Shown: positions 2,750 through 64,000 of the stretch, piece after piece
Position numbering within the stretch: position 1 is the first letter of the stretch
Layout: every line of letters begins with the position of its first letter
Source of the DNA: a phage
Sequence record: PZ583741.1
Strand: one strand, 5' to 3'
Length of the DNA stretch: 64,000 nucleotides
Translations under genes and position numbers: made by a program
The notes under the pieces: generated by a model
Told to the model about the DNA's origin: nothing
What the model saw: the letters and a program-made list of their open reading frames with translations, nothing else
The model's database searches: none

Positions 2750-2774
2750 TCATCATCACGTAAATGAATCTACA

Positions 2775-6658: not shown

Positions 6659-6661
6659 AAG

Positions 6662-6688: not shown

Positions 6689-6689
6689 A

Positions 6690-7094
6690 TCAGCGTTTCA
6701 TCTTGTCAATTTCATCGTCAATAATCTTTATTATCTCTCGCTTTGCATTCCTCCATGCATAAATGGCATCAAGCGAAGCTCTGTCTTTTGAATCACCGGT
6801 AGCTGTTGAATACAGGATTATGTCTCCCATCTTACAAAATGTATCTATGTAAACAGCCCTAAAAAGACCATCGCCGCAACTCCAGCACAAGCAATTATTT
6901 ATTTTCTTGCAATCATTACCAATGATTCCGGTGCTAAACAACTGAATCCAGCCAATAGGTTCACCAATGGAAATGTCATACTCATCACTATGACCACTAA
7001 CAGAGCACTCAAGACGGAACGTTCGATATTCATGCAGATTGAGACATAATGATCTGTAAATAAGGAATTTAGATCTTTTCTTAACGCTCATCAC
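6690..7094 (-). CDS. hypothetical Cys-rich protein
   Basis: 134 aa ORF, several Cys pairs; no family recognised. Confidence 0.35.
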   Translation of the reverse strand: MMSVKKRSKFLIYRSLCLNLHEYRTFRLECSVSGHSDEYDISIGEPIGWIQLFSTGIIGNDCKKINNCLCWSCGDGLFRAVYIDTFCKMGDIILYSTATGDSKDRASLDAIYAWRNAKREIIKIIDDEIDKMKR

Positions 7095-8683
7095 AACCCC
7101 CTCATAAATCTCATGCGCTTAACGGCAGCAGAAAGATAATTTCTAACCGTTGAGTTCATCCGCAGACCATCCCATGAACCATCACTGCACATCTTAATTG
7201 CTCTTGGATTATCCCTGTCCAGCATTAGTGGTGAATGTTTGTTCTCCTCAATAGCAAGAAGAACTTCATAAACAAATTTATCAGGCGTTAACGTGATGTT
7301 GTTCGAGTCAGCAGAATTGATTATCTTTTCGACTCTGTCACGGCACAGCTTGTTCTTTATAACAGACAAATAAGGCGTTTTAATGAATGCTTGTGATTCA
7401 CAAATTCGCTTTATTTTTTCAACAATGTTCGACCACTCAGTATTCTCAAGTCCATCAAATGCCTGTTCACCCTCAAGGAATCTTTTCAGCCCCGCGAGGT
7501 GTTCAAGAACAGTGAGATAACCCCACTCGATATGCTCCGTCGTAACTGATGGTGTCATTCCCTGACGACTTGACAGATCGGTATACGCCGCCAGAGTTGC
7601 AAGATCGACAATCATTAGACCCATGCGAGGGATAACATCACCAACAACACCATCGCAATCACCAAGCTCACTTTCCAGTTTCATAGACAGAGATCTGTGC
7701 AGTTTTTTCGCATTATCATCAGCCCATACAACGTGAGTTTTCGCGGTAAGAACCCTACCTTTCCACTCATTGATTATTTTTCTTGAAAGCGTACCACTCA
7801 CTTCCACATCCTTCATCGCTGGCATTTCCTCACCAGCAAGATGTCCAAGCTGGAACAGAACGCGACCCATACCGCCATCTTTCTGCCATGAACGCGCAGC
7901 ATCTATTCCCTGCTCTGGTGTGACAGTAATCAGCGGAACAAATTTTGCGTTTTCAATTCCACCGTCTTTTGTTGCAATTTCGTACTCATTCATTGCCGAC
8001 TTTAGCGCGCGCCCAACGCTGTGATCCATCATCGCAAGTCGCTTATAATCTATAACTCCTTTTCCATCATCGCCACCAGTAAGTGGCACTATCCATCCCT
8101 CAGCGCTTGCTGCCGCCATGATGCGTTTTGGGTTTTGTTCCCAAGTAAGGTTTTCAAGCAACTCCTTGATTATTGGTCTGTTAGGAACCCACACGCCGCC
8201 ATCAGTGAGGCCTCTATACCACGCCATAGTACCGCCAAGATATGCATTACGCGGGTTATTCCAGTCTTCAAGATGTTGCTTGTCATCATTCACAACGTAG
8301 AGCAAAGACCCACCTCCGGCAATCAGGTCTAACTGCATCTGTTTCGTAGATGTTGATTTAGACGCGCAAACTCTGGACCCTATTCCCAGCGCATTGGCAT
8401 ATGCCCTGACGAAACTCACCGGGGCACCCTTACCTGCACCAGAGCGAGCTACCAGAAATATGCCAGTATTGCAGATACTACCTGTTGGACCAATCAAGTA
8501 TCGTCCAGCCATCGCCTGAGCAAGACCCAAAGCGCCAGTTAAACGATATCTTCCACCTCCATCACGGCGCTCAAACCCCCTTGCGATCTCATCCATAAAC
8601 TCACCAAGTGCCCCGGGAGCATCCCGCTTTATGCCCATAGCCAGAGACTCAAAATCAATCGAACTCATCAATACACCATCCAT
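7091..8683 (-). CDS. P-loop NTPase, putative replication protein
   Basis: 530 aa; Walker A ARSGAGKGAP, Walker B-like LLYVVNDD; same relative position as B 58773..60356. Confidence 0.4.
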   Translation of the reverse strand: MDGVLMSSIDFESLAMGIKRDAPGALGEFMDEIARGFERRDGGGRYRLTGALGLAQAMAGRYLIGPTGSICNTGIFLVARSGAGKGAPVSFVRAYANALGIGSRVCASKSTSTKQMQLDLIAGGGSLLYVVNDDKQHLEDWNNPRNAYLGGTMAWYRGLTDGGVWVPNRPIIKELLENLTWEQNPKRIMAAASAEGWIVPLTGGDDGKGVIDYKRLAMMDHSVGRALKSAMNEYEIATKDGGIENAKFVPLITVTPEQGIDAARSWQKDGGMGRVLFQLGHLAGEEMPAMKDVEVSGTLSRKIINEWKGRVLTAKTHVVWADDNAKKLHRSLSMKLESELGDCDGVVGDVIPRMGLMIVDLATLAAYTDLSSRQGMTPSVTTEHIEWGYLTVLEHLAGLKRFLEGEQAFDGLENTEWSNIVEKIKRICESQAFIKTPYLSVIKNKLCRDRVEKIINSADSNNITLTPDKFVYEVLLAIEENKHSPLMLDRDNPRAIKMCSDGSWDGLRMNSTVRNYLSAAVKRMRFMRGL

Positions 8684-8997
8684 ACGCGCAAGAATTTACC
8701 ATGGATAACACCATGTTTCACCGTTAACACAGCACCCACCCTGTCAGCCTCAATTTTTAGCGCCCTCTGAAGTGACGCCATTGTCATCTGAAAACCTCGC
8801 TCTATGTCGTATGCGTAGCACCCATCTCTGCCACCAATCAAAATTGAAGTTGAATACCCGTTCTCAAAGTAAAACTGACACCCATCAGGAGCGGTAAGAT
8901 TATTTATCACGTCGTGAGCAAGCGATGTCGTAACAGGGAATATCGGAGCGCAACTCATACTCACCTCACTCAACTCGCTTAATGTGCAAAACTTCAT
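8668..8997 (-). CDS. hypothetical protein
   Basis: 109 aa ORF in minus-strand operon. Confidence 0.3.
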   Translation of the reverse strand: MKFCTLSELSEVSMSCAPIFPVTTSLAHDVINNLTAPDGCQFYFENGYSTSILIGGRDGCYAYDIERGFQMTMASLQRALKIEADRVGAVLTVKHGVIHGKFLRVWMVY

Positions 8998-9214
8998 CGA
9001 AATATGAGCACGTTCTGAATTTCATCCCAAAATCCTCACCAACCCTTCCGAGACACGCGCGAAATCTTTCAACAGAAAGCCCTTTATCTGCAATATCCTC
9101 ATAAGCAATTGAATTAACCTGGCCAACATCCATATGTTTTGCAACGCGATACACGAATTCCATCTTTGAACCATCACGATACATTTTGTTTCTCATAGTC
9201 ACCTCAATCCGCAT
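8966..9214 (-). CDS. hypothetical protein
   Basis: 82 aa ORF, first gene of minus-strand operon. Confidence 0.3.
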   Translation of the reverse strand: MRIEVTMRNKMYRDGSKMEFVYRVAKHMDVGQVNSIAYEDIADKGLSVERFRACLGRVGEDFGMKFRTCSYFDEVLHIKRVE

Positions 9215-9851
9215 TCCAACAGTAACTATAGATAAAAAATAAAATTAACGCAACGCAAAACAGGTCTAACCAGCAACAACAGCTACCACACTTAACAACT
9301 AGTCTGACCACCATCTCGTATCAGATATATGTGGATGGTGCCCGTCGTTTAATTTGTGCTCGATTTTTACCTAATTTACCGTATATTTATTGGTCAGTTT
9401 TTGCATAACTAATTGATTTATATGATTTACCGGTTTTACCGGAACTCTAAGGAGTATTTTCATCATTGAGAGTAGTAGTATATTAATTGGTCTAATTTTT
9501 AAATAACTCTAATAAAATCAATATATTAATATAAGAAAGTAACTTGCTTACTTATATAGGATTTACCGGGTAAAACCGGTAACTCCTCCGCATCCCGCGT
9601 CATTACTGGATTGATTTTTACCACCTGTAGGTAAATACAGTAGTTTTTAAGTCAGGATTGTTTTTGTAAGATGTTGATTACCGGTACTTTATTTGAAAAA
9701 CCGGGATTTACCGGGTTTTTGTTGTGTGATTAATAATTGCGCAATTGGTCATGTTTCAACAGAACACACTGATGCGACATCTGAAAATCATATTGACGTA
9801 GAATTACAACTGATGTAGATTGAACTCATCGAAACAAACGAGGGTGAAGAG
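9215..9851. promoter_or_regulatory. AT-rich divergent intergenic region with at least five (A/G)TTTACCGG(G)T repeats
   Basis: atttaccggttttaccgg, atttaccgggtaaaaccggtaa (palindromic), gattaccggt, ccgggatttaccgggttttt read directly; 640 bp without ORFs. Confidence 0.5.
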
Positions 9852-10037
9852 ATGAAAGAAGAAAGCACGTACAGCATTGACCAGATGAAGTTATTCAGCG
9901 ATATATGCATGGCATTGTCACAACAGGTTCCAAGCCTGCCTGCTGATATGCGCTCAAATGCCATCATTGATGCGGCAAACATGATTTGCGAGGCATATGC
10001 GATGACTGAAGATGAATATAAGGATTCGAAGAAATGA
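9852..10037 (+). CDS. hypothetical small protein
   Basis: 61 aa ORF starting the plus-strand operon. Confidence 0.35.
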   Translation: MKEESTYSIDQMKLFSDICMALSQQVPSLPADMRSNAIIDAANMICEAYAMTEDEYKDSKK

Positions 10038-10436
10038 CAGGCGCAGCATTCGAGCTTATCGCCAGTCTGGTTATCGCGGCATTCATTATCATCGCAGTGG
10101 CAGTTTATAAATCAGGATATAAGGAGTGACAGAATGAGCAGCTGGCATAATGAACACATCATGCAATGGTATCGTCGCCGCATTAAGACAATCATTAACT
10201 CTCACGAGGTGCAATAAATGGCAAAGACTATCTATCGTCGCGAGAAGCTGGAATAAGAACTCGGTCACGTTGGCGCGCAGAACTTCATGAGCAAGCAGGC
10301 ACGCAATGCAATGGAATCTATCCGCGTAAATCGCGTTGTGCGCGTGTTCAATGGCGAGGGTAAACGAAGAGTAATGGATGAGCTGATTATCGTATTTTGA
10401 CCTCGATTCAGCGCTCTTATTTTTAATGGTGATGAT

Positions 10437-10670
10437 ATGGCAAAAGTAAAAACATATGAGTTCTGGTTTGTGCAGAACAAAATTCATGCAAGCAAGATAA
10501 TCAAGCGAGCGCACTGGTGGAATAAGTGGCTAATCCTGTCAGGATGCATTGTGCTGGCAAAGTGCAAATTCAAAGCGATTGACATCACAGATGAGGATTC
10601 ACTCAAAATCGCAAAGATTGAGTTTGAAGAAGATGGCTATTACGAAGAAATTATGGGGGTTAGGGTATGA
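10437..10670 (+). CDS. hypothetical small protein
   Basis: 77 aa ORF. Confidence 0.35.
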   Translation: MAKVKTYEFWFVQNKIHASKIIKRAHWWNKWLILSGCIVLAKCKFKAIDITDEDSLKIAKIEFEEDGYYEEIMGVRV

Positions 10671-11068
10671 GTGAAGTTAAAACATACGCAGTGAATTGCA
10701 ATGACGCATGGCTAAACACCGAAGGTGATAACATCTCCGGGTCATACGTTAAGTACAAAGACCATCAGGAAGTGGTTGCCGCTATTGAGGCCAAGTGCGC
10801 GGCGCTAGCAGCGGAGAATGCGGCGCTTAAACAGTCGGAGAAGGAATTTAATAACTTCTGTCGTCAGGAGTACTACGGTTGGGAGGACAACTTCACGGAA
10901 ACCCCAGCCACCGATGATTTTCTGGTTGAAATTGAACGCAAAGCAATCCGCAAGTTCATTAACAGTATTGAACACATTCTTCGCGACAAGTTGTCACCGT
11001 ATGACACAGAAGAGATGCTTGAGGATATGCGTATTTTCCTGGAAGAGCAGAGTGGTGAGCAAAAATGA
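10667..11068 (+). CDS. hypothetical protein
   Basis: 133 aa ORF, start overlaps upstream stop (ATGA). Confidence 0.4.
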   Translation: MSEVKTYAVNCNDAWLNTEGDNISGSYVKYKDHQEVVAAIEAKCAALAAENAALKQSEKEFNNFCRQEYYGWEDNFTETPATDDFLVEIERKAIRKFINSIEHILRDKLSPYDTEEMLEDMRIFLEEQSGEQK

Positions 11069-11367
11069 CAATCACAAAACAACGTGTAGAAGAAATAATA
11101 TCGCGCATTGAAATGTATGGGCATGGTGCCGGGTATACCGCAGAAGAGGTTTATGACCTTGCTATACTGGCGCTGAATTTATCAAATATCGCAAACCTGA
11201 AGCGATACGAACTTGATATGGATGGTTGCGACTCGTGCGGTCAGGATTGTGGCGCTGACATGAGCGAAGACCCTGAAGGCGAATTTGTCATGTTCGACGA
11301 TGTTGTCAAGATGGTTCAGTTCGACACTACCAACCTGCAATTCGAAAGCCTGGCTAAAAGTGAATAG
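11065..11367 (+). CDS. hypothetical protein
   Basis: 100 aa ORF, overlapping start. Confidence 0.4.
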   Translation: MTITKQRVEEIISRIEMYGHGAGYTAEEVYDLAILALNLSNIANLKRYELDMDGCDSCGQDCGADMSEDPEGEFVMFDDVVKMVQFDTTNLQFESLAKSE

Positions 11368-11512
11368 CTACCCGTTCATATTAATTATCAGTGCGCTCTA
11401 TGTGTCGCACGCTTTAGTGGAGGCATACCAATGAACAACCACAAACGACGCCGATACACCACTGGCGCTAAAATCTTCCTTGCTGTTTATGTGCTGGCAC
11501 TTGTAGCAGCTG

Positions 11513-11710
11513 TTGCAGGAGTTGTGCATTATGTTTAACGATATCAGTGACGCAATGCAAAACATGTGGGAACGCTACTGGGACGGTATGATGACGTGTC
11601 ATTACATGATGGTGCAGCTCGGCAATCGCATTGAGGTTGTACCTGACAATGGTGTGCATGACATCAAGTACATGTGCTCTACGAGGGATTATGCTAATGC
11701 AAACAACTAA
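11513..11710 (+). CDS. hypothetical small protein
   Basis: 65 aa ORF. Confidence 0.3.
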   Translation: MQELCIMFNDISDAMQNMWERYWDGMMTCHYMMVQLGNRIEVVPDNGVHDIKYMCSTRDYANANN

Positions 11711-11870
11711 AGCCAAGGTTTGGCAACTCGCCAAGCAGCACGAATTGGACGATTTTATAGCGAAGGTTGCCAAAACATTCCCAGATGCGCTTGAAATCGT
11801 TCATGTGCAGACGCAAACAGAAAATGCATGGTGCTATGCTGGCAAGCGTGGTAATGATAGTGTACAATAA
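11691..11870 (+). CDS. hypothetical small protein
   Basis: ATG at 11691 preceded by gaggga; ORF-track start 11631 is probably too far upstream. Confidence 0.3.
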   Translation: MLMQTTKAKVWQLAKQHELDDFIAKVAKTFPDALEIVHVQTQTENAWCYAGKRGNDSVQ

Positions 11871-11914
11871 ACGCATAACCACCATTGCTTTCACTCATAT
11901 CATCACCCAACCTT

Positions 11915-11942
11915 TGACCCGCCTTGTGCGGGTTCTTTTTTG
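11915..11942 (+). terminator. rho-independent terminator (acccgcc-ttgt-gcgggt plus T-run)
   Basis: Read directly. Confidence 0.55.
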
Positions 11943-12018
11943 TCATTAACAGCATGGCGTAGAATCTGTTACAATATCGAATAACGGGAAAAAAGCGGAA
12001 TATTGATAGGGTTTATAT

Positions 12019-12435
12019 ATGGCTAAAAAGCTATTCAGTAAAGAAAATCAACCACAAAATAAACGTGGGAAAGACAAGCGTAAGTTGCTCGTTGAAGCTC
12101 TTGAGAGAAAGGGGTTTAGTGAGGAAAAGCTCTATGACGCCATCGTTGAGATGGCGATGATTGAGCGTGATACTGCAATGATGAAAGAGCTTATCGTTCG
12201 ATTCAGTCCGTTACCTAAGCCTGTCGCCCCTGTTTTTGAAGTTGATTTCCCTGATGACGGAACTCCGGTAGAGAAGATTGATGCTGTTATTCGTGGCATA
12301 GCTGCTGGTGTTATACCTGTGGACATTGGAAAGACATTTGCGGAGGTTATCAGGACTGGGCTTGATATTGCTGAAGTTACCGAACTCGCCGCGCGCCTTG
12401 AGCGACTGGAGAAATTACTGGCGCAGCAACAGTAA
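12019..12435 (+). CDS. putative terminase small subunit
   Basis: 138 aa, basic N-terminus, coiled-coil C-terminus, immediately upstream of large terminase; positional inference. Confidence 0.4.
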   Translation: MAKKLFSKENQPQNKRGKDKRKLLVEALERKGFSEEKLYDAIVEMAMIERDTAMMKELIVRFSPLPKPVAPVFEVDFPDDGTPVEKIDAVIRGIAAGVIPVDIGKTFAEVIRTGLDIAEVTELAARLERLEKLLAQQQ

Positions 12436-12534
12436 CTGATTTATAATAATTAATGCGGCTAGGGGGCACCCGAAAAGCGACTCATCACCGCCTGCCGCAT
12501 TCACTTCAATGATGCCCTGATGAGGAATCTATAT

Positions 12535-15054
12535 ATGGCACGCAAAAGACTGTCAGCACCAGCAATTGAAAAACTCGAAGAGATTATTGGCGATGGCGTG
12601 ATTGATACGCCTGAATCCGCGGTGTTCGGTGTTGTTAATACAGATAAGCAGATTGTTCGCAAACTAAAAATGACGCAAAGCGGAGTTGATGACGTTAGCG
12701 ACTCTGATATTAACGTTGATCACCTGATACCAGAAAAGCTGGAAAAGCTACTTTACCCCAAGCGAAATAAGATTGTGTTTGGCGGGCGCGGATGCTTAGC
12801 CATCGGCACAATGGTTAGGATGTTTGATGGTAGCCTAAAACGCGTAGAGGATATCGCTGTTGGCGATAAGGTTATGGGTCCAGACAGTAAACCACGAAAT
12901 GTTTTAAGCATCTGCCGTGGGTTTGATGACATGTATACGGTTCATCAAAAATATGCTGAGGACTACACTGTCAACTCAAGTCACATACTGTCATTACGAA
13001 AGATTCCATCTGCTATCAGTGACGAGACAAAAACACCGGATGGTAAAAGAATTTATCGTTATTACCCAAATGACCCTGAAATACTTAATATCGGTGTTTC
13101 AGAATATTTGTCGCGCGCAACTTCCACGAAGTTCCGTCATGTCTTTAAAGGGTGGCGAACAGGATGGGATTTTCAGGAACAAAGCGTTCCAATTGACCCG
13201 TACTTTCTTGGTTTATGGTTAGGTGATGGCTCATCTCGTAGTGTTGAAGTATGCACGCCTGATCCAGAGATAGTTGACTACCTTCACGGTGTGGCAAGCC
13301 AATATGGGATGCAGGTAAAGGTTCGCGACGATGATAGATGCCCTGTCTATGCGATAACTAATGGTCGAGCTGCTGGCATGGGGAAAAACACCAACCCTTT
13401 ACTAACTAAAATGCAGCAGCTTGGGGTGATTAATAATAAACACATACCTGACTGCTATATTAAAAACAGCAGACAGGTAAGACTTCAGATTCTGGCTGGG
13501 CTATTGGATACTGATTCGCATTACCACAAAGAAAAGAAAAGCTATTGTTTTACATCAATAAATAAAGATATAGCCTTCTCTTTGATGGATGTGGCAAGAT
13601 CACTTGGCTTCAAGTCAAGCATAATCAAAAAGACCGATGTCACCTTTGAGTATAAAGGTGAGAAAAGAATATACGAAAAGGATGTGTGGGAGGTGTTCGT
13701 TAGTGGTGAACTTCATACAATCCCATGCCGAGTAAAAAGGAAGATAGCAGAGAAAACCAAGTCAACCCGTGGAAAGATGACTGAGGTGTCATTGTCTTAT
13801 GCCGGGCATGGTGTATACGCTGGATTCACTCTTGATGGCGATCATCTTTTCTTGCTTGCTGATGGCACAGTTACACACAACAGCGGAAAAACAAGAACAG
13901 TAACTACAATACTTACGGAGCGTGCACGCTTTAAGCCTGACAGGATAGCTTGTTTCCGTGAGATTCAGCAGTCTATTGAGGATAGTTCGTATCAGGAACT
14001 GAAAGACGAGATTGACAGGAAGGGCGAGACAAAAGAGTTTCGCGTAATCAACAACGAAATAACACACAAGGTAACGAAAGCAAAGTTCCGCTTTAAAGGT
14101 CTGTATCGCAACCAGACGACCGTTAAAGGCTTTGCTGGCATTACAGTCGCTTGGGTTGAGGAGGCTGAAAACGTTAGCCAGACAAGCTGGGAAATCCTCA
14201 CTCCAACTGTTCGCGCTGATGGCTCTGAGATATGGGTGACATTCAACCCAAATAAGGAGCATGACCCCACATGGAAGACGTGGGTTGAGCCGTTTTATAG
14301 CAAACTGCGCTCAAGTGGCGGTATTTACGAAGACGAAGAAAACCTGATTATTGAATGTAACTATTCAGATAATCCGTGGTTTTGGGATACGCCACTACCC
14401 AGCCAAATGCAACGAATGAAAGAGACAGACTTCGACCGCTATCAATGGGTTTGGGGTGGTCGCTTTAACAAGAGGAATGACGAGCAGGTCTTTGGCGGCA
14501 AATGGCGCATTGATAACTTTGAGGTTAAACCTGAATGGCACGGCCCATACTTCGGGATGGACTTCGGGTTTTCCACTGATCCTACCGCAATGATTGAAGT
14601 TTACATCGAAGAACTACCAGGTGCACGGCGCAACATTTATATTAATCGCGAATATGGCAAGGTTGGCCTTGAGATTACCGATACACCAGCTGCGATGGAG
14701 CAATCATTCCCGATGGCTAAGCGCGCGCGATGGTATGCAGACTGCGCTCGACCGGAAACCATCAGCCACATCAAGCGTTCTGGCTTTGATATTCATCCAT
14801 GCACAAAATGGCCGGGAAGCGTTGAGGATGGCGTAACGTGGCTGCGCGGCTGCGACAGTATCATCATCCATGAGCGATGCAAGGAAATGCAGAATGAAGC
14901 GGCAATGTACAGCTATAAGGTTGATAAGCTGACCGGAAATGTACTCACGGATATTGTTGATGCATATAACCATTACTGGGATGCCGTTCGCTATGCGCTT
15001 AATGACCACATCGTCCAGCGCGGTAGCGGAATGCTAATCCGGCGCAGGAGATAA
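12535..15054 (+). CDS. terminase large subunit, intein-containing precursor
   Basis: Exteins give GGRG|SGKT Walker A, WVEEAE, VTFNPN, GMDFGF..DPTA, ADCARPE, NHYWDAVRYAL; ORF track starts at 12520, ATG at 12535 has a better RBS. Confidence 0.85.
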   Translation: MARKRLSAPAIEKLEEIIGDGVIDTPESAVFGVVNTDKQIVRKLKMTQSGVDDVSDSDINVDHLIPEKLEKLLYPKRNKIVFGGRGCLAIGTMVRMFDGSLKRVEDIAVGDKVMGPDSKPRNVLSICRGFDDMYTVHQKYAEDYTVNSSHILSLRKIPSAISDETKTPDGKRIYRYYPNDPEILNIGVSEYLSRATSTKFRHVFKGWRTGWDFQEQSVPIDPYFLGLWLGDGSSRSVEVCTPDPEIVDYLHGVASQYGMQVKVRDDDRCPVYAITNGRAAGMGKNTNPLLTKMQQLGVINNKHIPDCYIKNSRQVRLQILAGLLDTDSHYHKEKKSYCFTSINKDIAFSLMDVARSLGFKSSIIKKTDVTFEYKGEKRIYEKDVWEVFVSGELHTIPCRVKRKIAEKTKSTRGKMTEVSLSYAGHGVYAGFTLDGDHLFLLADGTVTHNSGKTRTVTTILTERARFKPDRIACFREIQQSIEDSSYQELKDEIDRKGETKEFRVINNEITHKVTKAKFRFKGLYRNQTTVKGFAGITVAWVEEAENVSQTSWEILTPTVRADGSEIWVTFNPNKEHDPTWKTWVEPFYSKLRSSGGIYEDEENLIIECNYSDNPWFWDTPLPSQMQRMKETDFDRYQWVWGGRFNKRNDEQVFGGKWRIDNFEVKPEWHGPYFGMDFGFSTDPTAMIEVYIEELPGARRNIYINREYGKVGLEITDTPAAMEQSFPMAKRARWYADCARPETISHIKRSGFDIHPCTKWPGSVEDGVTWLRGCDSIIIHERCKEMQNEAAMYSYKVDKLTGNVLTDIVDAYNHYWDAVRYALNDHIVQRGSGMLIRRRR
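12793..13881 (+). mobile_element. intein (363 aa) with LAGLIDADG homing endonuclease domain inserted in terminase Walker A
   Basis: Starts with Cys (tgc 12793), ends His-Asn (cac aac 13876-13881), +1 residue Ser; LGLWLGDGS and LAGLLDTDS motifs; flanks reconstitute GGRGSGKT. Confidence 0.8.
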
Positions 15055-15060
15055 AAATAA

Positions 15061-15088
15061 AGCCCTCATCTGAGGGCTACTTTCATTT
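15061..15088. terminator. hairpin agccctca-tc-tgagggct after terminase
   Basis: Read directly; weak U-run. Confidence 0.4.
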
Positions 15089-15235
15089 AATCAATGCTCG
15101 TCGACCAAGTTCAGCAATCCATTCCGCCGCATCCTCTATTTTGTTGAACTCATAAAGATGCTTGCCGTCTTCCATGACATAAAACAGAATGCGACCAAAT
15201 TTATTTTTCTTTGCGCTAAATTTAACATCTTTCAT
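15083..15235 (-). CDS. hypothetical small protein (50 aa)
   Basis: Short minus-strand ORF between terminators; not in ORF track. Confidence 0.2.
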   Translation of the reverse strand: MKDVKFSAKKNKFGRILFYVMEDGKHLYEFNKIEDAAEWIAELGRRALIK

Positions 15236-15387
15236 ATTTTCACTCCTTCCGTTTCATGAGTTCAATCTACATCACAAGCATATCCACGTCAACATTTATT
15301 GTTGTTGATAAATCTGCATCACCACACTTGACCAATCTACACCGAGCGCATAGTATAATCTACATCAGGCTTACCGGAGATATCACT

Positions 15388-15594
15388 ATGCGCAGCTATG
15401 CAGGATTTACACAGGAGGAAAAAGAACAGGTTTATTCACTGGCGCGGGCTGGCGTGCCTGATGAGGTGATTTGCTGTCGGTATGATATCGACGAGGACTT
15501 CCTGCTGCGTGTTATTGATGACGTTTTCGTTAACCTGCAAGAGAAGCGAGGATATAAGGGTATCTGCTGCAAGAATGATTTTTTGAGAGGGTGA
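15388..15594 (+). CDS. hypothetical small protein
   Basis: ATG at 15388 after ggaga; track ORF 15256 trimmed. Confidence 0.35.
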   Translation: MRSYAGFTQEEKEQVYSLARAGVPDEVICCRYDIDEDFLLRVIDDVFVNLQEKRGYKGICCKNDFLRG

Positions 15595-15756
15595 TGTGGT
15601 GATTATTGAAAAAACAAATGAATGCCACAGTCTGTATATAAATACAGAACTAGTCATCAATTTAAGGCAATGTGACGACTGGGTTCAGCTTGACAAACAC
15701 CAAGCCGCGCAACTAATCGAAGTCCTGCAACGCTGGGTTAATGGTGAGGAGATTGA

Positions 15757-15966
15757 ATGATGAGCGTTTATTTTTATTGCGGTCACATTGAGCGACAAGG
15801 AAGCGTAGCGAGCGTTGGTAGTTTCTGCGGATTATCAATTGGACCTGATGCTGTTAGCGCATATGAAGATGTCATGAGAGCGCAGGTGAAGGAAATCCAG
15901 TCAATCACTGAGAGCGGCGCTTTTAATCTTTCTGTTATTTTTGATAAATTCGAAAAGGTGGAGTGA
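15757..15966 (+). CDS. hypothetical small protein
   Basis: 69 aa ORF overlapping next start. Confidence 0.35.
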   Translation: MMSVYFYCGHIERQGSVASVGSFCGLSIGPDAVSAYEDVMRAQVKEIQSITESGAFNLSVIFDKFEKVE

Positions 15967-16442
15967 TGATTGATTGGGTATCTTTATTTGATTATGATGG
16001 AGCGTCTTTGGTGTGGAAGCATGGAAGGGGAGGTGTTTCCGTTGGCAGCATTGCGGGAACGGTTAATGCTGGCGGGTACATTCAGCTCAAAGTTAACGGA
16101 AGATTTTATTATGCCCACAGAATTATATGGGAAATGCATAACGGTCCTATACCGGAAGGTATGGAGATTGACCACATAAATCATAACAAGGCGGACAACA
16201 GGATTGAGAATTTGCGTCTTGTTCGACACAAAACTAACACTAAAAACGCGCCTAAATACAAAAATAACACCAGCGGCGTTACTGGTGTGAGTTGGTATAA
16301 GAGAGATAAAAAATGGCTAGCACAAATAATGGTTGATGGCAATTACATACGTCTTGGTCTTTTTGATAATTTCGAAGCAGCAGTCGACGTGAGAAAGGAA
16401 GCAGAACTAAGGTATGGATTTCACAAGAACCACGGCGCTTGA
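15963..16442 (+). CDS. HNH homing endonuclease with AP2-like domain
   Basis: 159 aa; HRIIWEMHNGPIPEGMEIDHINHNKADNRIENLRLV, near-identical block in B ORF 22049..22561. Confidence 0.75.
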   Translation: MMIDWVSLFDYDGASLVWKHGRGGVSVGSIAGTVNAGGYIQLKVNGRFYYAHRIIWEMHNGPIPEGMEIDHINHNKADNRIENLRLVRHKTNTKNAPKYKNNTSGVTGVSWYKRDKKWLAQIMVDGNYIRLGLFDNFEAAVDVRKEAELRYGFHKNHGA

Positions 16443-16470
16443 TGATATAATGACCCTTGCAGAAATGTGA

Positions 16471-17764
<1,294 letters not shown>

Positions 17765-17778
<14 letters not shown>

Positions 17779-37942: not shown

Positions 37943-40900
37943 ATGGCACAAATGATCAAAACAAACATGAGGCTTTGTGATATGGCTGAAGAGATTAAGA
38001 TTTATGGTGCTAAGGGTGGTAGCCAGAAGCAGCACCAACCAGTGGAACAAGAAGACAACCTGATTTCATTAAACAAGGTTAAGGTATTACTTGCGGTTGC
38101 TGACGGCGAGGTGGATCCAAACTTCTCAATGAAGGATTTATACCTTGCTGACGTTCCGGTGCAAAACCAGGATGGCAGCTACAACTACGATGGTGTTCGC
38201 GCTGAGTTCCGTGCTGGTACGCAGTATCAGGACTATATCGCTGGCCTTGATGGTGCTAACTCAGAGATTCAGGCTTCCAGGGAAATCACAAACGACACCC
38301 CGTACATCATTGCGGTTAACAATAACCAGCTATCGGCAATTAGAGTCAAACTTTTTTGGCCTCGGTTGGTTAAGCAAGAAAGTAACGGCGACCTTGTCGG
38401 AACTACGTGCGAGTATGCGATTGACCTTTCCGTTAATGGTGGTTCTTACCAGGAATACACTCGCGGAGTTGCTAACGGGAAGACCACTACAGGTTACGAC
38501 CGCAGCATTCGCGTGAACCTTCCTGCAGAGTTTGATAGCGCATTGGTTCGCATCCGTAAGATTACAGCAGATTCAACAAGTAGCACGCTGGTTAACGGAA
38601 TGCAGATTACAACCTATCAGGAAGTAATCGACGCTAAATTCCGCTATCCGCTTACGGCACTTGTTTATGTTGAGTTCGGCTCTGACTTGTTCCCTAACGG
38701 AATCCCGACAATCTCAATCAAGAAGCGATGGAAGTTAATTCAGGTCCCAACGAACTATGATCCTGAGACTAGAACCTACAGCGGCACGTGGAATGGCCTG
38801 TTCAAGATGGCATGGTCAAACAACCCGGCGTGGGTTCTCTATGACTTAGTGACAAACCGCCGATATGGTCTTGAACAGCGAGAGCTTGGTGTAGAGATTG
38901 ATAAATGGGGACTGTATGAAGCTGCGCAATTCTGCGACCAGATGGTGCCGAATGGTAAGGGTGGAATGGAACCGCGATATCTATGCGACATGGTTGTACA
39001 GAACAAGGTTGAGGCATACACACTAATTCGTGACATTTGCTCAATCTTTCGTGGACTGACTTTCTATGATGGCGAAAAGATTGGTATCGTGGTTGATAAA
39101 CCTCGCAATCCATCTTACATCTTCACTAATGATAACGTTGTAAACGGATTATTCAGCCGCACTTTTGCCAGCGATAAAAGCCTTTACACTACGGCAAACG
39201 TTCAGTTTGATGATGTGGAGAACAACTATCAGCAGGATGTTGAGCCAGTATTTGAGCTCGAGGCTACTCGCCGATTTGGTTTTAACCCGGTCGACCTAAC
39301 GGCAATTGGATGTACGCGAAGAAGTGAAGCAAACAGACGCGGAAGATGGCTACTGAAAACCAACCTGAGAAGCGAAACCATAAGCTTCACTACCGGGCTG
39401 GAAGGCATGATTCCGATGATTGGTGAGGTGATTGCGGTCAATGACGCGGCATGGTCAAGCAACTATCAGTTAAACCTTTCTGGTCGCATTGAATCAGTTC
39501 AGGGATTGCAGGTTTTCACCCCGTTTAAAGTTGACGCAGCGCCGGGTGACAGAATTCTTCTGAACAAGCCTGACGGAAGTCCAGAAGCAAGAACTATTGC
39601 CAGCGTTTCGGAAGATGGTAGGACAATCAACCTTAACACTGCTTTTAGCTTTGTTGCTCAGCCAGACACGGTATTTGCAATCGACAAGGATAACCTTGCT
39701 CTTCAGCAGTACGTTGTGACAGGGATTCAAAAGGCAGATACTGACGGCTCGGATTCATTCCAGTATACGATTACCGCTGTAGAGTATGACCAGAACAAGT
39801 ATGACGAGATTGACTACGGCGTTAACATCGTTGACCGTCCAACTTCAATTGTTGAGCCTGACAGATTGTCGCCGCCTGAGAACTTAACAGTGTCAAGCTA
39901 CAGTAAGGTTGTTCAGGGCTTGTCAGTTGAGACAATGGTTATCGGATGGGATAAGGCGCCATACGCTAAAACCTACAATGTTCAGTGGAGAAAAGAGAAT
40001 GGTAACTGGATTAACGTACCAAGAACAGCAAGTACAGAGGTTGATATCGAAGGTATTTACGCAGGAATCTATGACGTTAGGGTTCGCAGCGTATCAGATA
40101 CTGAAAACGTGTCCGCCTGGTCTGACATTGTAACGGTATCGCTAACTGGCAAGATTGGTCGTCCCTCTGCACCTACGGTTATCACGGCCTCAAATGATGA
40201 AGTATTTGGTATCCGTGTTAAGTGGGGTTTCCCTGATGGCTCTGGCGATACTGCTTACACTGAACTTCAGCAGGTTGCTGATAATGGTGATGGTACATAC
40301 AATCCTGATAACGCAAGTTTGCTGACGTTGCTTCCATACCCAGCCTATGAATACTGGCATACGCCAATTCAGCCAGGTAAGGTGATTTGGTATCGCGCAA
40401 GATTGATTGACAGAATCGGCAATACCTCTGATTGGTCTGATTTCGCTAGAGGCATGAGTACTGACGACGCCAACATTATCAATGATTACATCAAGGTTGA
40501 TATTGAGGGTTCTGAAGGATTCAAATACCTAGAGCAGAATGCGATTCAAAAGAATCAGGACATTCAGAATCAGGCAGAGTCAATTCTTGAGAACGCATTA
40601 GCTAATGACACTGATGTGCGTCGTATGACTAAGGAGAACGGCAAACGTAAGGCCGAATATGTTCAGGCAGTGAATCTTATAGCTGATGAAACTCAGGCGC
40701 GTGTAGAAGCTCTTACGCAGCTTAAAGCGCAGATAGATGATGAAGTTGTAGCATCGATTACAGAAGTTCAGACAGCGCTAGCCACCGAGACAGAAGCAAG
40801 GACTACTGCAGACACGGCTCTATCAGCAAGATTGGGTGATAACGAGGCGGCTATAAGCCAGAAGTTAGACGCATTCTCCAATGCGACATCTACTGGCGTG

Positions 40901-41368
40901 CAATACGGAATTAGTTTGGGTCTTAAATATAACGGCCAGACTTATTCATCTGGCATGAGCATGGAGCTTGTCGGCACTGGTGGAAATGTTCGTAGTCAAT
41001 TCATTTTTGATGCAAACAGATTCGCAATCAGTAATGGAATTGGTTCTGGTTCTGGTCAGTGGCAACTCCCCTTCGTTGTCGAGAACGGAAACGTAATCAT
41101 CCAAAGTGCAGTAATTGGTGATGGTTCAATCAGTAACGCGAAGATTGGTAACTTCATTCAGTCCAATAACTACGTAGCAGGAACCACAGGTTGGAGGATT
41201 GATAAGTCTGGAAGTGCAGAGCTAAGCAACGCCACTGTAAGAGGTAATCTTTACGCTAACAATGGTAACTTCGCATTCAACGGAACCAATAACACTGTTC
41301 AGATTAACAACAATGGAATTACGGTAAACTTACCGAACGGAGGTAGAGTTGTAGTTGGAGTGTGGTAA
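37943..41368 (+). CDS. central tail fibre / host specificity protein (J-like)
   Basis: 1141 aa, last gene of tail operon; true start may be a downstream Met. Confidence 0.75.
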   Translation: MAQMIKTNMRLCDMAEEIKIYGAKGGSQKQHQPVEQEDNLISLNKVKVLLAVADGEVDPNFSMKDLYLADVPVQNQDGSYNYDGVRAEFRAGTQYQDYIAGLDGANSEIQASREITNDTPYIIAVNNNQLSAIRVKLFWPRLVKQESNGDLVGTTCEYAIDLSVNGGSYQEYTRGVANGKTTTGYDRSIRVNLPAEFDSALVRIRKITADSTSSTLVNGMQITTYQEVIDAKFRYPLTALVYVEFGSDLFPNGIPTISIKKRWKLIQVPTNYDPETRTYSGTWNGLFKMAWSNNPAWVLYDLVTNRRYGLEQRELGVEIDKWGLYEAAQFCDQMVPNGKGGMEPRYLCDMVVQNKVEAYTLIRDICSIFRGLTFYDGEKIGIVVDKPRNPSYIFTNDNVVNGLFSRTFASDKSLYTTANVQFDDVENNYQQDVEPVFELEATRRFGFNPVDLTAIGCTRRSEANRRGRWLLKTNLRSETISFTTGLEGMIPMIGEVIAVNDAAWSSNYQLNLSGRIESVQGLQVFTPFKVDAAPGDRILLNKPDGSPEARTIASVSEDGRTINLNTAFSFVAQPDTVFAIDKDNLALQQYVVTGIQKADTDGSDSFQYTITAVEYDQNKYDEIDYGVNIVDRPTSIVEPDRLSPPENLTVSSYSKVVQGLSVETMVIGWDKAPYAKTYNVQWRKENGNWINVPRTASTEVDIEGIYAGIYDVRVRSVSDTENVSAWSDIVTVSLTGKIGRPSAPTVITASNDEVFGIRVKWGFPDGSGDTAYTELQQVADNGDGTYNPDNASLLTLLPYPAYEYWHTPIQPGKVIWYRARLIDRIGNTSDWSDFARGMSTDDANIINDYIKVDIEGSEGFKYLEQNAIQKNQDIQNQAESILENALANDTDVRRMTKENGKRKAEYVQAVNLIADETQARVEALTQLKAQIDDEVVASITEVQTALATETEARTTADTALSARLGDNEAAISQKLDAFSNATSTGVQYGISLGLKYNGQTYSSGMSMELVGTGGNVRSQFIFDANRFAISNGIGSGSGQWQLPFVVENGNVIIQSAVIGDGSISNAKIGNFIQSNNYVAGTTGWRIDKSGSAELSNATVRGNLYANNGNFAFNGTNNTVQINNNGITVNLPNGGRVVVGVW

Positions 41369-41374
41369 ATGATT

Positions 41375-41396
41375 AGGCCCCTGGTGGGGCCTTTTC
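41375..41396. terminator. hairpin aggcccc-tggt-ggggcct between convergent genes
   Basis: Read directly. Confidence 0.6.
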
Positions 41397-41398
41397 TT

Positions 41399-42370
41399 TT
41401 AGTAGAAGTTTGGAATGAATGGAAGTGCCATTGATATATTTGTGTCGAAAGGGAACTGAGCGCCTGATTGCGTCGAGTAGTTACCAATTACAGTACCTGG
41501 CACTGCTCTAACGTTACCACCAGACATGCAAATGCCCTTGTATCGCAAGTTGTTATACCCTCCAGTAACTCTAGTCGTAGCGCCACATCTAAGAAGCGGG
41601 AAGAATCCACCATTTATTGACTGATATACATTGCTTATTTGTATAAATCCACTAAGTACAAATGGTCGCCTAACGCTGGAGAAAACAATCTGACCAGAGC
41701 TATTTGACATTGTAAGACCAGGTCCAGCTACTGGAGGTTCATTCCTGAATATCACCAACTGAACGTAAGTGCTTGCCGCCACATCATCTATACCACCATA
41801 GTTTACATCACGGCACCATATCGTACTCCCATCACTCTCCAGAGACACGTTTGGATTATCCCACTTACCGAATGGTATTCCACTGACTGGCAGTGCTGAT
41901 GATCCGTTAACCTGAATACCACCAACCCATGCCGCTGACATTAGCCGTGAGTTGCTTGATATTGCCAAGAAGTCAGTTGAGTTTTCAACTAGTATTCCTG
42001 GGCTTGATGAAGATGAGGCTGGTAGAATTTCAAAACAATTACCCGCAAAGTCAATTATTCGACCATTGGCTCCGTTAAAGTTACTAAGTGTTATCCTGCC
42101 AGTGCCGTCATTTACCTTTTGGAATCCGTTCATGTAATAAACTTCTGGTATAACATCGTAAGCGTCAACGTGGACCGCCTTCGTTGGTAGGCAGAAAGCC
42201 GTAGAGCCAGGAGACATTGTCAATCTAAAATCCCACGAACTTGCTGGGGTTGAAAGTCCATTGGTATTTATTGATCCAGTCACAGCAGGTGCCCTTAACC
42301 CTGCCGTAATTTCCATCGCTGGCCTTCCGTCATTAAGGTCAATCAATATACCATGAGGCATTATTTCCAC
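41399..42370 (-). CDS. hypothetical Gly/Ser/Asn-rich protein (possible fibre-like or exclusion-associated)
   Basis: 323 aa; second gene of a minus-strand two-gene cassette. Confidence 0.4.
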
Positions 42371-42606
42371 TCCTTGCTGCCATGATCTGCAACAGAGCCG
42401 CCGTAACCGCCGCCGACCTTGCTTTCAATCCCAGCGTAACGAACATCAACCTCGCCAGCCGGAACAACTACGCCACCCTTCCATTTAGCTACGCATACGC
42501 CGTTAGCTTGAGTTGCACACCAGCCATCCGGTCGAGGACCTGAAGAACAACCTACCATCATGACTGCTGCTGCGGCGATGATTGAAAGTTTGATTAAGTT
42601 AGTCAT
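42361..42606 (-). CDS. small lipoprotein (possible superinfection-exclusion protein)
   Basis: [22 protein letters not shown] signal peptide with lipobox VGC; minus-strand cassette upstream. Confidence 0.5.
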
Positions 42607-42672
42607 TTCTAATTCCTTAGTAAGTTGTTTCGTTTCGATGTGGTAATAGTATCGCATCCATGAGATCAGTAT

Positions 42673-42690
42673 TTAGCAATTAGTGCTATT
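42673..42690 (-). promoter_or_regulatory. B cassette motif on minus strand (aatagcactaattgctaa)
   Basis: Reverse complement read directly; TACTAT box and catcgaaacgaaac leader follow. Confidence 0.5.
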
Positions 42691-43339
42691 TCTTTTCGAG
42701 TAACATCTTGATGTCAATGCCGAGATTATTTTCAATCAATCCAGTCAGTGCATCCGTCTTTTCTTTAAGGGCAAAACACTGAGCTTCATACTTAAATCTT
42801 TCCTCCATCTCGTCAGAGCGACTAACCCAGCACTGGCGAGCCTCGCAAGCCAGCATGTCGAGTTTTTCATCGGTATTCTTATCCATGAGTAAGATCTCAT
42901 TTATTCTTTGCTCTGCAACAATGCGCTGACTAAGGTGTGCATTTTGCGCATTAGCCACACCAAGCATCATGCGCGCTTCTTTTAACTCATCAATGCTTAC
43001 CATCTGACTGATTACTTCTGCTTGTTTTTTAACTAACGACTCAAGCTCATGAAGTCTTTTAACTACCGCGTATCGAAGTGCGGGGCTGTAACCCATAACC
43101 AATGTTTCAGTTAAATCGCGGTTAAGAAGAACTTCAGAAACAAAGCCGCGATAGTCTATAAGTGCTTGATAATCCTCATGACCCAAATTTGGGTTATGCC
43201 CCGACGCTAGGATGTCGATTATCATATCCTCACAGTCACGAATAACGTGACCATGTCTTTTCCCAGTTAATTCCGCAATTTCTTTCGTGCTCATCATGGT
43301 TTTCGGCTGTTCTTTGTACAATTTAATCTTCATTTTCAT
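42686..43339 (-). CDS. Rha-family-like phage regulatory protein (putative)
   Basis: N-terminal MSTKEIAELTGKRHGHVIRDCE resembles Rha regulators; start at M34 of track ORF. Confidence 0.45.
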   Translation of the reverse strand: MKMKIKLYKEQPKTMMSTKEIAELTGKRHGHVIRDCEDMIIDILASGHNPNLGHEDYQALIDYRGFVSEVLLNRDLTETLVMGYSPALRYAVVKRLHELESLVKKQAEVISQMVSIDELKEARMMLGVANAQNAHLSQRIVAEQRINEILLMDKNTDEKLDMLACEARQCWVSRSDEMEERFKYEAQCFALKEKTDALTGLIENNLGIDIKMLLEKK

Positions 43340-43431
43340 CTCTCTTTGGTTTTGTGATACGAAATTTTCGTAGCGCAAGCGGCACCATTTCCGCCATGCG
43401 CACAAATATACCCAAATATTGCGTCTTGTCT

Positions 43432-43449
43432 TTAGCAAGACGTGCTATT
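43432..43449 (-). promoter_or_regulatory. B cassette motif on minus strand (aatagcacgtcttgctaa)
   Basis: TATATT box downstream on minus strand. Confidence 0.45.
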
Positions 43450-43938
43450 TATCGCAAATTTACCCATAAATCATGGTTACGCGTAACCGATGTAACTCGA
43501 TGTATACCATAGCCACCCGCGAGAAATGATATACGCACTGTTACGCCAATTTACGCAATGGTTACATTAAAATATCTATATATATCAACCTTTTACTCTT
43601 ATTATTATTATTATATATATTACCGTGTATATCATGTAACTACTGTTCTGGAGTGTTCCGGTTATAATTTTTATATTATGTGGATTTATACAGTATTGCG
43701 CGGCACCTATACATATGCACCATCCGTTAAAATAGGTATACACGATATACGCACCATTTACATTGAGCTATAGCTGGGCTTAAGTGGTGAAAAACGTAAC
43801 AAATGGCGATGTCTACACGTAGTTACAAAATTATACGCGTAAACTTGAATCAACGATTGGCAAAACCAATTGGACTACGCGTCGTGCGTAAGGCATCATT
43901 AACTCATCGAAAGCAAACAACAATAGAGAGATAAAGAA
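43440..43938. promoter_or_regulatory. AT-rich divergent control region (copy 1) with (TA)n, (ATT)n and 20-bp element cattgagctatagctgggct
   Basis: About 500 bp without ORFs; element at 43761..43780 contains perfect palindrome agctatagct; paralogous to 61940..62662. Confidence 0.5.
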
Positions 43939-44133
43939 ATGCCATACTTCATCATTAAAGAGAAAAACAACGCACTGTTCGGGGATTGCTACTTTGGAGG
44001 TGAGGCTGGATATACAGTTCACAAATCTGAAGCCGACCGATTCGAGACAAAGGAAGAAGCCAAGTCTGTTCTGACCGGATATTTCACTGAGGAAGATTTG
44101 AAAGCTGTTAAGATTGTCAAAATTAAGGATTGA
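43939..44133 (+). CDS. hypothetical small protein
   Basis: 64 aa ORF. Confidence 0.35.
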   Translation: MPYFIIKEKNNALFGDCYFGGEAGYTVHKSEADRFETKEEAKSVLTGYFTEEDLKAVKIVKIKD

Positions 44134-44136
44134 ACC

Positions 44137-45108
44137 ATGACATTTACCGTATACACAAATGATGAGCTAACCAATGAAGCCTATCACGAAGAGCAAGACC
44201 ATATCTCTGGCTCTTCACTTGCTGAGATTCTTGCCACCTCTCCAGCTAAATGGAAGTTTAAGCAGCGCAATAACTCTAGCGCAGCACTTAAGTTTGGCAC
44301 ACTCAGTCACTGCATGATGCTCGAGCGTGAAGTGTTCGATTCAACCTACATGCGAGCAACTGACTTTGACGAAGTGGAAGGATTGATTACAAGCCAAACA
44401 GCCTTATCAGCAGCGCTTAAGAAAGTTGGAGTTTCTGGCACGTCAGGAAAGGGCTATAGCGAGCTCTTAGAGATGATGTACAAGTCTGGTGAGGATTGGC
44501 CTGTTAAATGGTTAATTGATCAGCAGGAGAGCGCTGAGGCGTTAATTAGTGGCAAGGAGCTAGTTACTGCTAAAGATTACGATAAGGTAATCTCAATGCG
44601 TGAGGTTCTGACTAATGTACCGGCATATGATGCGGTGATTAATTCACCTACAGCGCAGAAAGAGCTATCAATCTTTGGTGATATTCTTGGGTGTGGTGTT
44701 AAGGTTCGGCTTGATCACGTGGATGTTGTTGATGGCGTTGTCTATATCCATGACTATAAGACGACCGCAGACGCAAGCCCTCGAGGATTTGGTAAGTCGG
44801 CTTATGACCATGGTTACCTGTGCAAGATGAGCCTTCAGCGTGATTTGTTTGTGAAGGCATTTAGCGAGAAGCGCAAGGTTGTGGTTCGACTCCTGGCGCA
44901 GGAGAAAACTGAACCATACTTACCTATGTGCTACACGCTTACAGATGAGCAACTTCGCATTGGGCGCATTCAGTATCTTGAAGCACTGGCTACATACAAA
45001 CAGTGCAAGGAACTTGATGTGTGGCCTGGTTACAGTAATGGGATTACAGAGCAAGAACTGATGATCCCTGAGTGGGTAAGTAAGCAGTATCAGGAGCTGC
45101 TAAAATAG
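44137..45108 (+). CDS. PD-(D/E)XK family exonuclease
   Basis: 323 aa; N-terminal block matches A ORF 1799..2749; IHDYKT motif. Confidence 0.55.
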   Translation: MTFTVYTNDELTNEAYHEEQDHISGSSLAEILATSPAKWKFKQRNNSSAALKFGTLSHCMMLEREVFDSTYMRATDFDEVEGLITSQTALSAALKKVGVSGTSGKGYSELLEMMYKSGEDWPVKWLIDQQESAEALISGKELVTAKDYDKVISMREVLTNVPAYDAVINSPTAQKELSIFGDILGCGVKVRLDHVDVVDGVVYIHDYKTTADASPRGFGKSAYDHGYLCKMSLQRDLFVKAFSEKRKVVVRLLAQEKTEPYLPMCYTLTDEQLRIGRIQYLEALATYKQCKELDVWPGYSNGITEQELMIPEWVSKQYQELLK

Positions 45109-61939: not shown

Positions 61940-62662
61940 ATTGCGCGGTAGTATTTACCCTTTTTAGTCTCTTTCGAGAGTGACTCAGAGTCTGCTACCG
62001 TGTCGATGAGATTAAGTATACGCATAGTTAGCCACACTGTCTTTAGCAAAAAGTGCTATTCGTTAGATTTATGGATTGTTGCAGATATTGCAATGATTCA
62101 CATGACTATTGCACATACAGCAATATTGCTTCAGATGCAATGATGTTTTTGATTGTTGCGAAAATTGAAATGAAGTGGAGATTGAGTGAATGAAAGATGG
62201 ATGGACTACCATACAAGTTGATTTTGATCTTGACTGAGCCATTTTCACGCTTACACGTAACCGCTGTAGCGCGATGTAAGCCAACGCCTATCGTTACGCG
62301 AGTTACGCGAAGCTACGCCATGACTTACACTATAAGTGCTTAATATATATATATATCTTCTTTCTATTATTATTATTATTATTAATATTATTGTATGTAA
62401 GTCATGTAACCGGGTGTTCGGCGGTATCTATATGTTTTTTCCTATCAGAATACATTATTTCCATTTTATGCGAGATTTAGCCATTATGGGGCCACCTAGC
62501 TAATTTACCTCGTTACACGCACGACACGAAACTACATTGAGCTATAGCTGGGCTGGTGTGCCATTTCGCGTAACGACCCCCAAAAGTTACCAAAAATTAC
62601 ACTTGACTACATGTGTAAGTCGGGATATGATGGATTCAACTTAAACGAGAGGAGTAATAGAA
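61940..62662. promoter_or_regulatory. AT-rich divergent control region (copy 2) with (TA)n, (ATT)n and 20-bp element cattgagctatagctgggct
   Basis: Element at 62535..62554; (tatt)/(att) run 62361..62390; paralogous to 43440..43938. Confidence 0.5.
62043..62060 (-). promoter_or_regulatory. B cassette motif on minus strand, variant (aatagcactttttgctaa)
   Basis: Reverse complement read directly. Confidence 0.45.
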
Positions 62663-63742: not shown

Positions 63743-63931
63743 ATGTCTAAGCGCATCACTAAAGAACTTAAAGTGCTGAACAAAGAAAACGTAATCACCA
63801 TCCTGACAATGTTTGGCTACAACGAAGAATCTGCCATTGCAAAGGTTGAATCTGGTTACGATGTTGCGGTACGAAGCATGCCGGAAGCAACCTCAAAAGG
63901 TATCGCCGACTTCCTGGCTACATGTTACTAA
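63743..63931 (+). CDS. hypothetical small protein
   Basis: 62 aa; its last 58 nt are the start of the 127-bp repeat shared with 17652.. Confidence 0.4.
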   Translation: MSKRITKELKVLNKENVITILTMFGYNEESAIAKVESGYDVAVRSMPEATSKGIADFLATCY

Positions 63932-64000
63932 GTTATCTTACAAGGCATCTCGTGGGGTGCCTCAGTAAGACAACCGGAGATAGAGCATGAAAACCAAAAT
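63874..64000. repeat. 127-bp exact copy of 17652..17778 (terminal overlap of circular genome B)
   Basis: Base-by-base identity; period 46,222 bp; repeat ends exactly at the window end. Confidence 0.85.

Follow-up and report, generated by a model that had tools for sequence, protein, structure and literature searches.

The tail-tip gene of this phage is followed, on the opposite strand, by two small genes, and the question raised by this locus is what these genes do and which host receptor they are concerned with. The initial annotation had described them as an antisense two-gene unit behind a repeated promoter-like cassette, coding for an 81-aa lipoprotein with the lipobox VGC followed by SS and for a Gly/Ser/Asn-rich protein of 323 aa. 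The lipoprotein had been likened to Cor, the exclusion lipoprotein of T1-like phages, and its partner was left as an uncharacterised protein with no recognisable catalytic motifs. The window, by which we mean the whole stretch of 64,000 nt that was analysed (PZ583741.1), consists of two phage sequences joined together, 1-17650 and 17651-63872. The first part matches Segz_1-type Salmonella/E. coli siphophages (about 91% nucleotide identity) and contains none of the repeated cassettes, and the second part, of 46,222 bp, is the complete genome of an Rtp-like member of the Drexlerviridae. The final 128 nt of the window (63873-64000) repeat 17651-17778 as either a wrap-around or a terminal repeat. 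A reading of the window as a concatemer was rejected because the repeat is limited to these last 128 nt. From the ORF list and the sequence, the J-like gene and its immediate downstream neighbors are laid out as follows:

37943 to 41368, plus strand: J-like central tail-tip protein gene, 1141 aa (PF24801, PF13550, PF09327; PHROG 31 'central tail fiber J')
41375 to 41392, no strand assigned: GC-rich hairpin AGGCCCC-TGGT-GGGGCCT (terminator scan and sequence reading)
41399 to 42361, minus strand: gene for a predicted terminal receptor-binding protein (RBP) of the LptD type, DUF6453, 320 aa from ATG 42361 (PF20051, PHROG 1265 and homologues)
42361 to 42606, minus strand: gene for a predicted Rtp45-type superinfection-exclusion outer-membrane lipoprotein, 81 aa (PF24052 and match to 9RPS chain D)

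Most of the described layout holds up on inspection. Both minus-strand ORFs are found directly past the J-like gene, and neither is a chance reading frame, as can be seen from their Pfam E-values of 1.7e-39 for the lipoprotein and 3.1e-139 for the RBP. The J-like protein is presumed to be the docking platform for the RBP. The J gene stops at 41368 and the stop codon of the RBP gene lies at 41399, so that the two genes are convergent, and between their stops sits the hairpin, which is followed by TTTCTTTT on the plus strand and, on the minus strand, by AATCATTT, a poor T-run. It is probably a terminator common to the J and RBP genes. The lipoprotein gene runs from ATG 42606 to TAA 42361 with the Shine-Dalgarno (SD) sequence TAAGGA 7 nt upstream, and its stop codon shares one nucleotide with the start of the RBP gene (TAATG, 42363-42359), an arrangement that would couple the translation of the two genes, both behind one copy of the cassette. 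The one part of the layout that has to be corrected is the length of the second product. The count of 323 aa starts from a GTG at 42370, and the product is most likely 320 aa from ATG 42361, because the GTG overlaps the SD (AAGGAG, 42375-42370), the ATG stands 8 nt past it, and the equivalent ATG is the annotated RBP start in vB_Ec-G8, OzMSK, Rtp and Bas01. The compositional description is accurate, with 11.2% G, 11.2% S and 7.8% N (together 30%).

The same arrangement is found in related phages. The closest record to the locus is vB_Ec-G8, with 97.6% nucleotide identity, and the order J (plus), RBP (minus), lipoprotein (minus) with the 1-nt overlap is identical in Rtp, Bas01, OzMSK and G8. 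In OzMSK/MSK (vB_ecoS_OzMSK; genes 038/039) and in G8 (002/003) the genes, their order, strand, overlap and position after J are all the same; the differences amount to a few dozen substitutions and to the upstream gene, which is a DNA methylase gene in OzMSK and Rha-like here and in G8. The locus architecture is likewise the same in Rtp (rtp44/rtp45) and in AugustePiccard (bas01_0028/0029).

Expression of the pair has to be considered together with what lies upstream of it:

42627 to 42691, minus strand: promoter/operator-like cassette copy of about 65 nt, AAATAGCACTAATTGCTAAA ... GATACTATTACCACATCGAAACGAAAC (repeat families D1-D5, D8, I1-I4)
42686 to 43339, minus strand: gene for a Rha/anti-repressor-like DNA-binding protein, 217 aa (PHROG 8235 1.2e-79; PF09669 4.6e-08)

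The cassette that had been placed ahead of the operon is indeed present (42691-42627) and ends 20 nt ahead of the lipoprotein ATG. This copy is made up of AAATAGCAC-N4-TTGCTAAA ... a TATAGT-like hexamer ... and CATCGAAAC, and genome-wide the cassette consists of a palindromic core ATAGCAC-N4-TGCTAA, about 22 nt, a TATAGT-like hexamer and then CATCGAAACGA. Its 17-nt core has 23 matches compared to the 2.4 expected by chance, and the aligned copies each stand before an SD and an ATG. Copies are spread over 17948-63684, for example at 18671, 19109, 20165, 24122, 36099, 42689 (minus), 43448 (minus), 45105, 53092, 56871, 60861 (minus) and 62059 (minus). A sigma-70 promoter scan of 41000-44200 returned no consensus promoter between the Rha-like and lipoprotein genes and left the cassette unflagged. 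Its spacing is not that of a sigma-70 promoter, as 22 nt separate TTGCTA from the -10-like TACTAT. By its position the copy at 42627-42691 is promoter-like, and this claim draws solely on the cassette being repeated; transcripts could alternatively read through from the upstream Rha-like gene. Wietzorrek et al. 2006 reportedly described conserved inverted repeats upstream of Rtp genes and proposed them as sites of the regulator Rtp52, and we presume that the cassette seen here is probably the same element.

The Rha-like gene has its own cassette copy (core 43448-43432), and its TAG stop falls inside the core of the copy that precedes the lipoprotein gene. The slot that it occupies is variable among the relatives: it holds a DNA methylase gene in OzMSK, Dcm and three other genes in Bas01, nothing in Rtp and the Rha-like gene in G8. 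The Rha-like gene is outside the conserved pair of RBP and exclusion genes. We note that a Rha/anti-repressor-like gene is here present in a phage of the virulent type. Additionally, two AT-rich tracts with ATTATT repeats (43571-43613 and 62342-62384) are 84% alike, and one of them sits in the intergenic region from which the Rha-like gene and the rightward recombination genes diverge.

The family of the lipoprotein is well defined. It matches PF24052 ("Phage lipoprotein family") over residues 1-80 of 81 with 134.1 bits against a cut-off of 27, PHROG 4281 with an E-value of 1.4e-36, and chain D of PDB entry 9RPS, which is Rtp45 together with LptDE-LptM, with E=1.9e-38. Identity to Rtp45 is 81% by BLASTP and 84-87% in a MAFFT alignment, and the OzMSK_039 and G8 proteins are 88% and 94% identical. 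The signal peptide has K6 in its n-region, a hydrophobic core and the lipobox M-V-G-C20 followed by Ser-Ser, as had been described; residues 10-20 satisfy the PROSITE-type lipobox rule, and the Ser at +2, with no Asp, is an outer-membrane sorting signal. The mature protein would have 62 aa and a mass of about 6.3 kDa. Across five homologues residues 20-60 are almost invariant, including Cys30/Cys38 and the strand at 30-35, and the differences fall in the signal peptide and at the C-terminus, where the tail has a 5-residue indel. Residues 20-43 equal those of Rtp45 apart from an N at position 35, where Rtp45 has S. In Rtp45, residues 30-35 form a beta-sheet with LptD 318-323 (PMC12685063), and Cys30-Cys38 is a disulfide pair (PMC12685063, 9RPS); both cysteines are present in our protein.

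A small outer-membrane lipoprotein beside the tail-tip genes of a T1-related phage can also be compared to Cor. In T1, phi80 and N15 a small exclusion lipoprotein occupies the equivalent slot after gpJ, accompanied by gp22/gp23-like genes. If the present protein belonged to the Cor family it would inactivate FhuA, and the 320-aa partner would be an uncharacterised accessory. The G8 orthologue is named 'Cor superinfection exclusion protein' in GenBank, and a homology search against Cor, which had been suggested for this gene, does return a faint match to PHROG 1119 (Cor) with E=0.008. However, this match covers residues 6-34 and the BLASTP alignment to T1 Cor is 20 residues long, so that only the signal peptide and lipobox resemble Cor. 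Membership in the Cor family was rejected because there is no homology over the mature protein, and the strong matches are instead those to PF24052 and to Rtp45 bound to LptDE in 9RPS. The T1-type loci also differ in gene number, orientation and receptor, which is FhuA. The T1 locus is composed of two plus-strand genes related to N15 gp22/23 and then cor, and genes of this FhuA type (homologues of T1 gp32/gp31 and N15 gp22/gp23) were not found at the present locus. The 320-aa protein is unlike gp31, a post-J gene product of T1, with no significant similarity (E=1.4). Additionally, the OzMSK outbreak arose in strains in which FhuA was disrupted (PMC13035648). This leaves the Cor reading hardly credible to us. 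What survives of the earlier comparison is exclusion at the phage's own receptor, for which PF24052 and the 81% identity to Rtp45 speak; what is lost is the Cor family and FhuA. The evidence supports the lipoprotein as a member of the Rtp45-type family, and superinfection exclusion via the phage's own receptor is the role that its homology supports best.

The partner protein can no longer be called uncharacterised. It matches PF20051 (DUF6453) over its full length with 463.7 bits against a cut-off of 25, as well as PHROG 1265, and its structural counterpart is the RBP of Oekolampad on open LptDE (chain C of 9RPT/9RPW/9RQI; E=4.4e-69, full length), to which it has 46% identity over 313 aligned residues and about 30% over residues 41-120. 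Among closer relatives the identity is 99.1% to the vB_Ec-G8 protein, 93% to OzMSK_038 and 39% to Rtp44, with end-to-end alignments for the latter two. A recent study defined the family of LptD-specific RBPs by more than 30% identity at more than 99% coverage and reported that the characterised members above 30% identity are all linked to LptD, this being one of four unrelated protein families at the RBP locus with one receptor each (bioRxiv 10.64898/2026.04.02.716166). Our protein falls within these bounds with 39-93% identity at full coverage. The position is also telling, in that the place after gpJ has been called the "bona fide RBP locus" which sets the terminal receptor specificity in small siphophages (Maffei et al., PMC8594841), and OzMSK is unable to infect two lptD loop-deletion mutants (PMC13035648). 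A single-sequence AlphaFold2 model of the RBP had a mean pLDDT of 31 and was unusable, so its fold identity has to be taken from the sequence; by homology its fold would be that of 9RPT chain C, with two lectin-like beta-sandwiches. We characterise the 320-aa protein by homology as a probable LptD-specific terminal RBP. The absence of catalytic motifs, though correctly observed, is irrelevant since such a protein is an adhesin.

Public labels would suggest something quite different. PHROG 1265 carries the label 'membrane protein' and is filed under moron/host takeover, the label 'membrane protein' has been copied in several GenBank records, and the genes are on the strand opposite to the tail operon. 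On these grounds the 320-aa protein could be a moron product of the host envelope and the lipoprotein a lysis protein (o-spanin-like) or some other envelope factor, neither being related to adsorption. Against this, there is no lysis cassette anywhere near the two genes, a homologue of the lipoprotein has been observed bound to LptDE (PMC12685063), and across many phages the slot that immediately follows gpJ is correlated with the specificity for the receptor. We give this possibility next to no weight, and prefer to read the pair as an adsorption and exclusion module.

The RBP and lipoprotein families occur in about the same phage records (391 and 387). Distant homologues of both proteins are seen in phages of about 75-78 kb, among them PQ030848.1, NC_018835.1 (NJ01), KF981730.1 (KBNP1711) and NC_070984.1 (ES17), with an identity of about 25% for the RBP and of about 39-48% for the lipoprotein. 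In PQ030848.1 the two homologues are about 30 kb apart and unpaired. These phages of about 76 kb may also use or block LptD.

The comparison of the locus to Rtp and G8 reveals a mosaic. Relative to Rtp, the protein identity is 91% over the last 300 aa of J and 81% for the lipoprotein, with 39% for the RBP between them, and at the nucleotide level 83-93% over 42641-42463 with about 45% for the RBP gene; the conservation between the RBP and Rtp44 is limited to the first ~25 residues. Relative to G8 the pattern is reversed, with about 100% nucleotide identity for the RBP gene and 87-90% for the lipoprotein gene. In the comparison of 41100-42700 to Rtp and vB_Ec-G8, recombination-like breaks are seen near the lipoprotein/RBP junction at about 42340-42460. 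The 5-residue indel in the C-terminal tail of the lipoprotein tracks the type of RBP allele: Rtp44 is a different allele, and the insertion in the present lipoprotein goes with the OzMSK-type RBP. Our interpretation is that the two genes have partly separate histories and that the exchangeable part would be the receptor-contacting body of the RBP. Across genera as well the lipoprotein is better conserved than the RBP (59% compared to 31% for Klebsiella siphophages), which is consistent with its targeting LptD from the periplasmic side, which is conserved.

A variable RBP body raises the possibility that the present allele has moved to a different or additional outer-membrane receptor, with the lipoprotein still acting on LptD or being vestigial. 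The body is hypervariable, with low identity to Rtp44 between well conserved flanks, RBP loci are horizontally exchanged and determine the choice of receptor (PMC8594841), and there are examples of dual receptors. One of these is Bas01, which is reported to need NupG in addition to LptD, the former via a domain of J (bioRxiv 10.64898/2026.04.02.716166). Several findings speak against such a shift. The RBP is 93% identical to that of the LptD-dependent OzMSK, the characterised members of its family are all linked to LptD, and a highly conserved lipoprotein of the LptD-binding type has been kept alongside. Over its full length the J protein shares 96% identity with Rtp43, and it shares 92% with the J of Bas01, in which there are an insertion of 33 aa and a diverged segment (J residues ~890-960) that are missing here and in Rtp43. 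Because J is without these two elements, the present phage is probably free of the second (NupG) requirement. A change of receptor is in our view quite improbable, and the reading that we keep is that of an RBP directed to LptD.

With these pieces together we are highly confident that the locus is the known LptD host-recognition module, that is, a terminal RBP together with an exclusion lipoprotein of the Rtp45 type, as judged from homology. In this module the RBP would be a late product attached to the J-like tail tip at its distal end, with the conserved N-terminal ~25 residues as the likely docking part. The variable tip of the RBP would enter the lipopolysaccharide translocon LptDE at the extracellular mouth of LptD, and this insertion would make adsorption irreversible and trigger DNA ejection. 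In the solved complex LptDE is open, and the Oekolampad RBP contacts loops EL3-5 and EL11 of LptD (9RPT). The lipoprotein is predicted to be exported, lipidated at Cys20 and, with Ser at +2, delivered to the outer membrane, where it would sit in the inner leaflet. A cryo-EM structure shows Rtp45 on Shigella LptDE together with LptM (9RPS; PMC12685063), and by homology our lipoprotein would bind LptDE at its periplasmic rim, between LptE and LptM, with its beta-hairpin running up the LptD lumen and pushing extracellular loop 4 (EL4) outward. The displacement of EL4 by Rtp45 is up to 20 Å (PMC12685063). With EL4 displaced in this way the RBP would no longer be able to dock, so that superinfecting LptD-dependent phages would be excluded and progeny would be spared dead-end adsorption to the debris of lysed cells.

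This logic has parallels in other phages. The RBP of Oekolampad (Bas18, Dhillonvirus) is of the same family and receptor class (LptDE) in another phage genus, and its lipoprotein is just 35% identical to Rtp45 (PMC12685063). T5 follows the same logic with unrelated proteins, where the tail-tip RBP pb5 is adjacent to Llp, a small lipoprotein that faces the periplasm, attaches to the same receptor on its inner side and makes it unfit for the RBP. The receptor in that case is FhuA, a TonB-dependent transporter, and Llp acts by long-range allostery, whereas Rtp45 acts by physical displacement of LptD EL4 (PMC12685063). The likeness to Llp is functional, as Pfam and PHROG scans of the lipoprotein returned just PF24052, PHROG 4281 and the faint Cor match, with no match to the Llp family.

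One further possibility is that the lipoprotein works as a general plug of LptDE, which would cross-exclude every LptD-targeting RBP allele and throttle LPS export, leaving the RBP body as a freely swappable cassette. This is suggested because the hairpin would sit in the LptD lumen and the lipoprotein sequence is near-constant across phages whose RBPs are less than 40% identical, and the mosaic pattern behind it, a variable RBP between a conserved J and a conserved lipoprotein, is observed here. We consider a plug of this generality unlikely, and continue with the lipoprotein as an Rtp45-type exclusion protein.

The strength of the module reading depends on how close the present alleles are to those studied by experiment. 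We infer the LptD binding of the present RBP allele, its location in the virion, the exclusion phenotype and the promoter activity of the cassette. The RBPs that have been handled structurally or biochemically are distant from the present allele (Oekolampad 46%, Rtp44 and Bas01 39%), and for the OzMSK allele the evidence comes from genetics with the whole phage rather than from direct RBP-LptD binding. The exclusion role of Rtp45 is said to have been put forward as a proposal in the Rtp genome paper of Wietzorrek et al. 2006. In the portions of PMC12685063 available to us the case for exclusion by Rtp45 is structural, and these portions contain no experiment in which phages were plated on cells that express Rtp45.

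The module, its receptor and its exclusion mechanism are already known, having been published in 2021-2026, and near-identical genes are in GenBank. The value of the present analysis is in what the genes are called, as the public labels 'membrane protein', 'hypothetical protein' and 'Cor' can be replaced by an LptD-type RBP and an Rtp45-type exclusion lipoprotein, both assigned by homology. The terminal receptor of such a phage can be predicted to be LptD from the sequence by itself. Such a prediction accounts for why 'T1-resistant' laboratory strains that are deficient in FhuA would stay unprotected against the phage.
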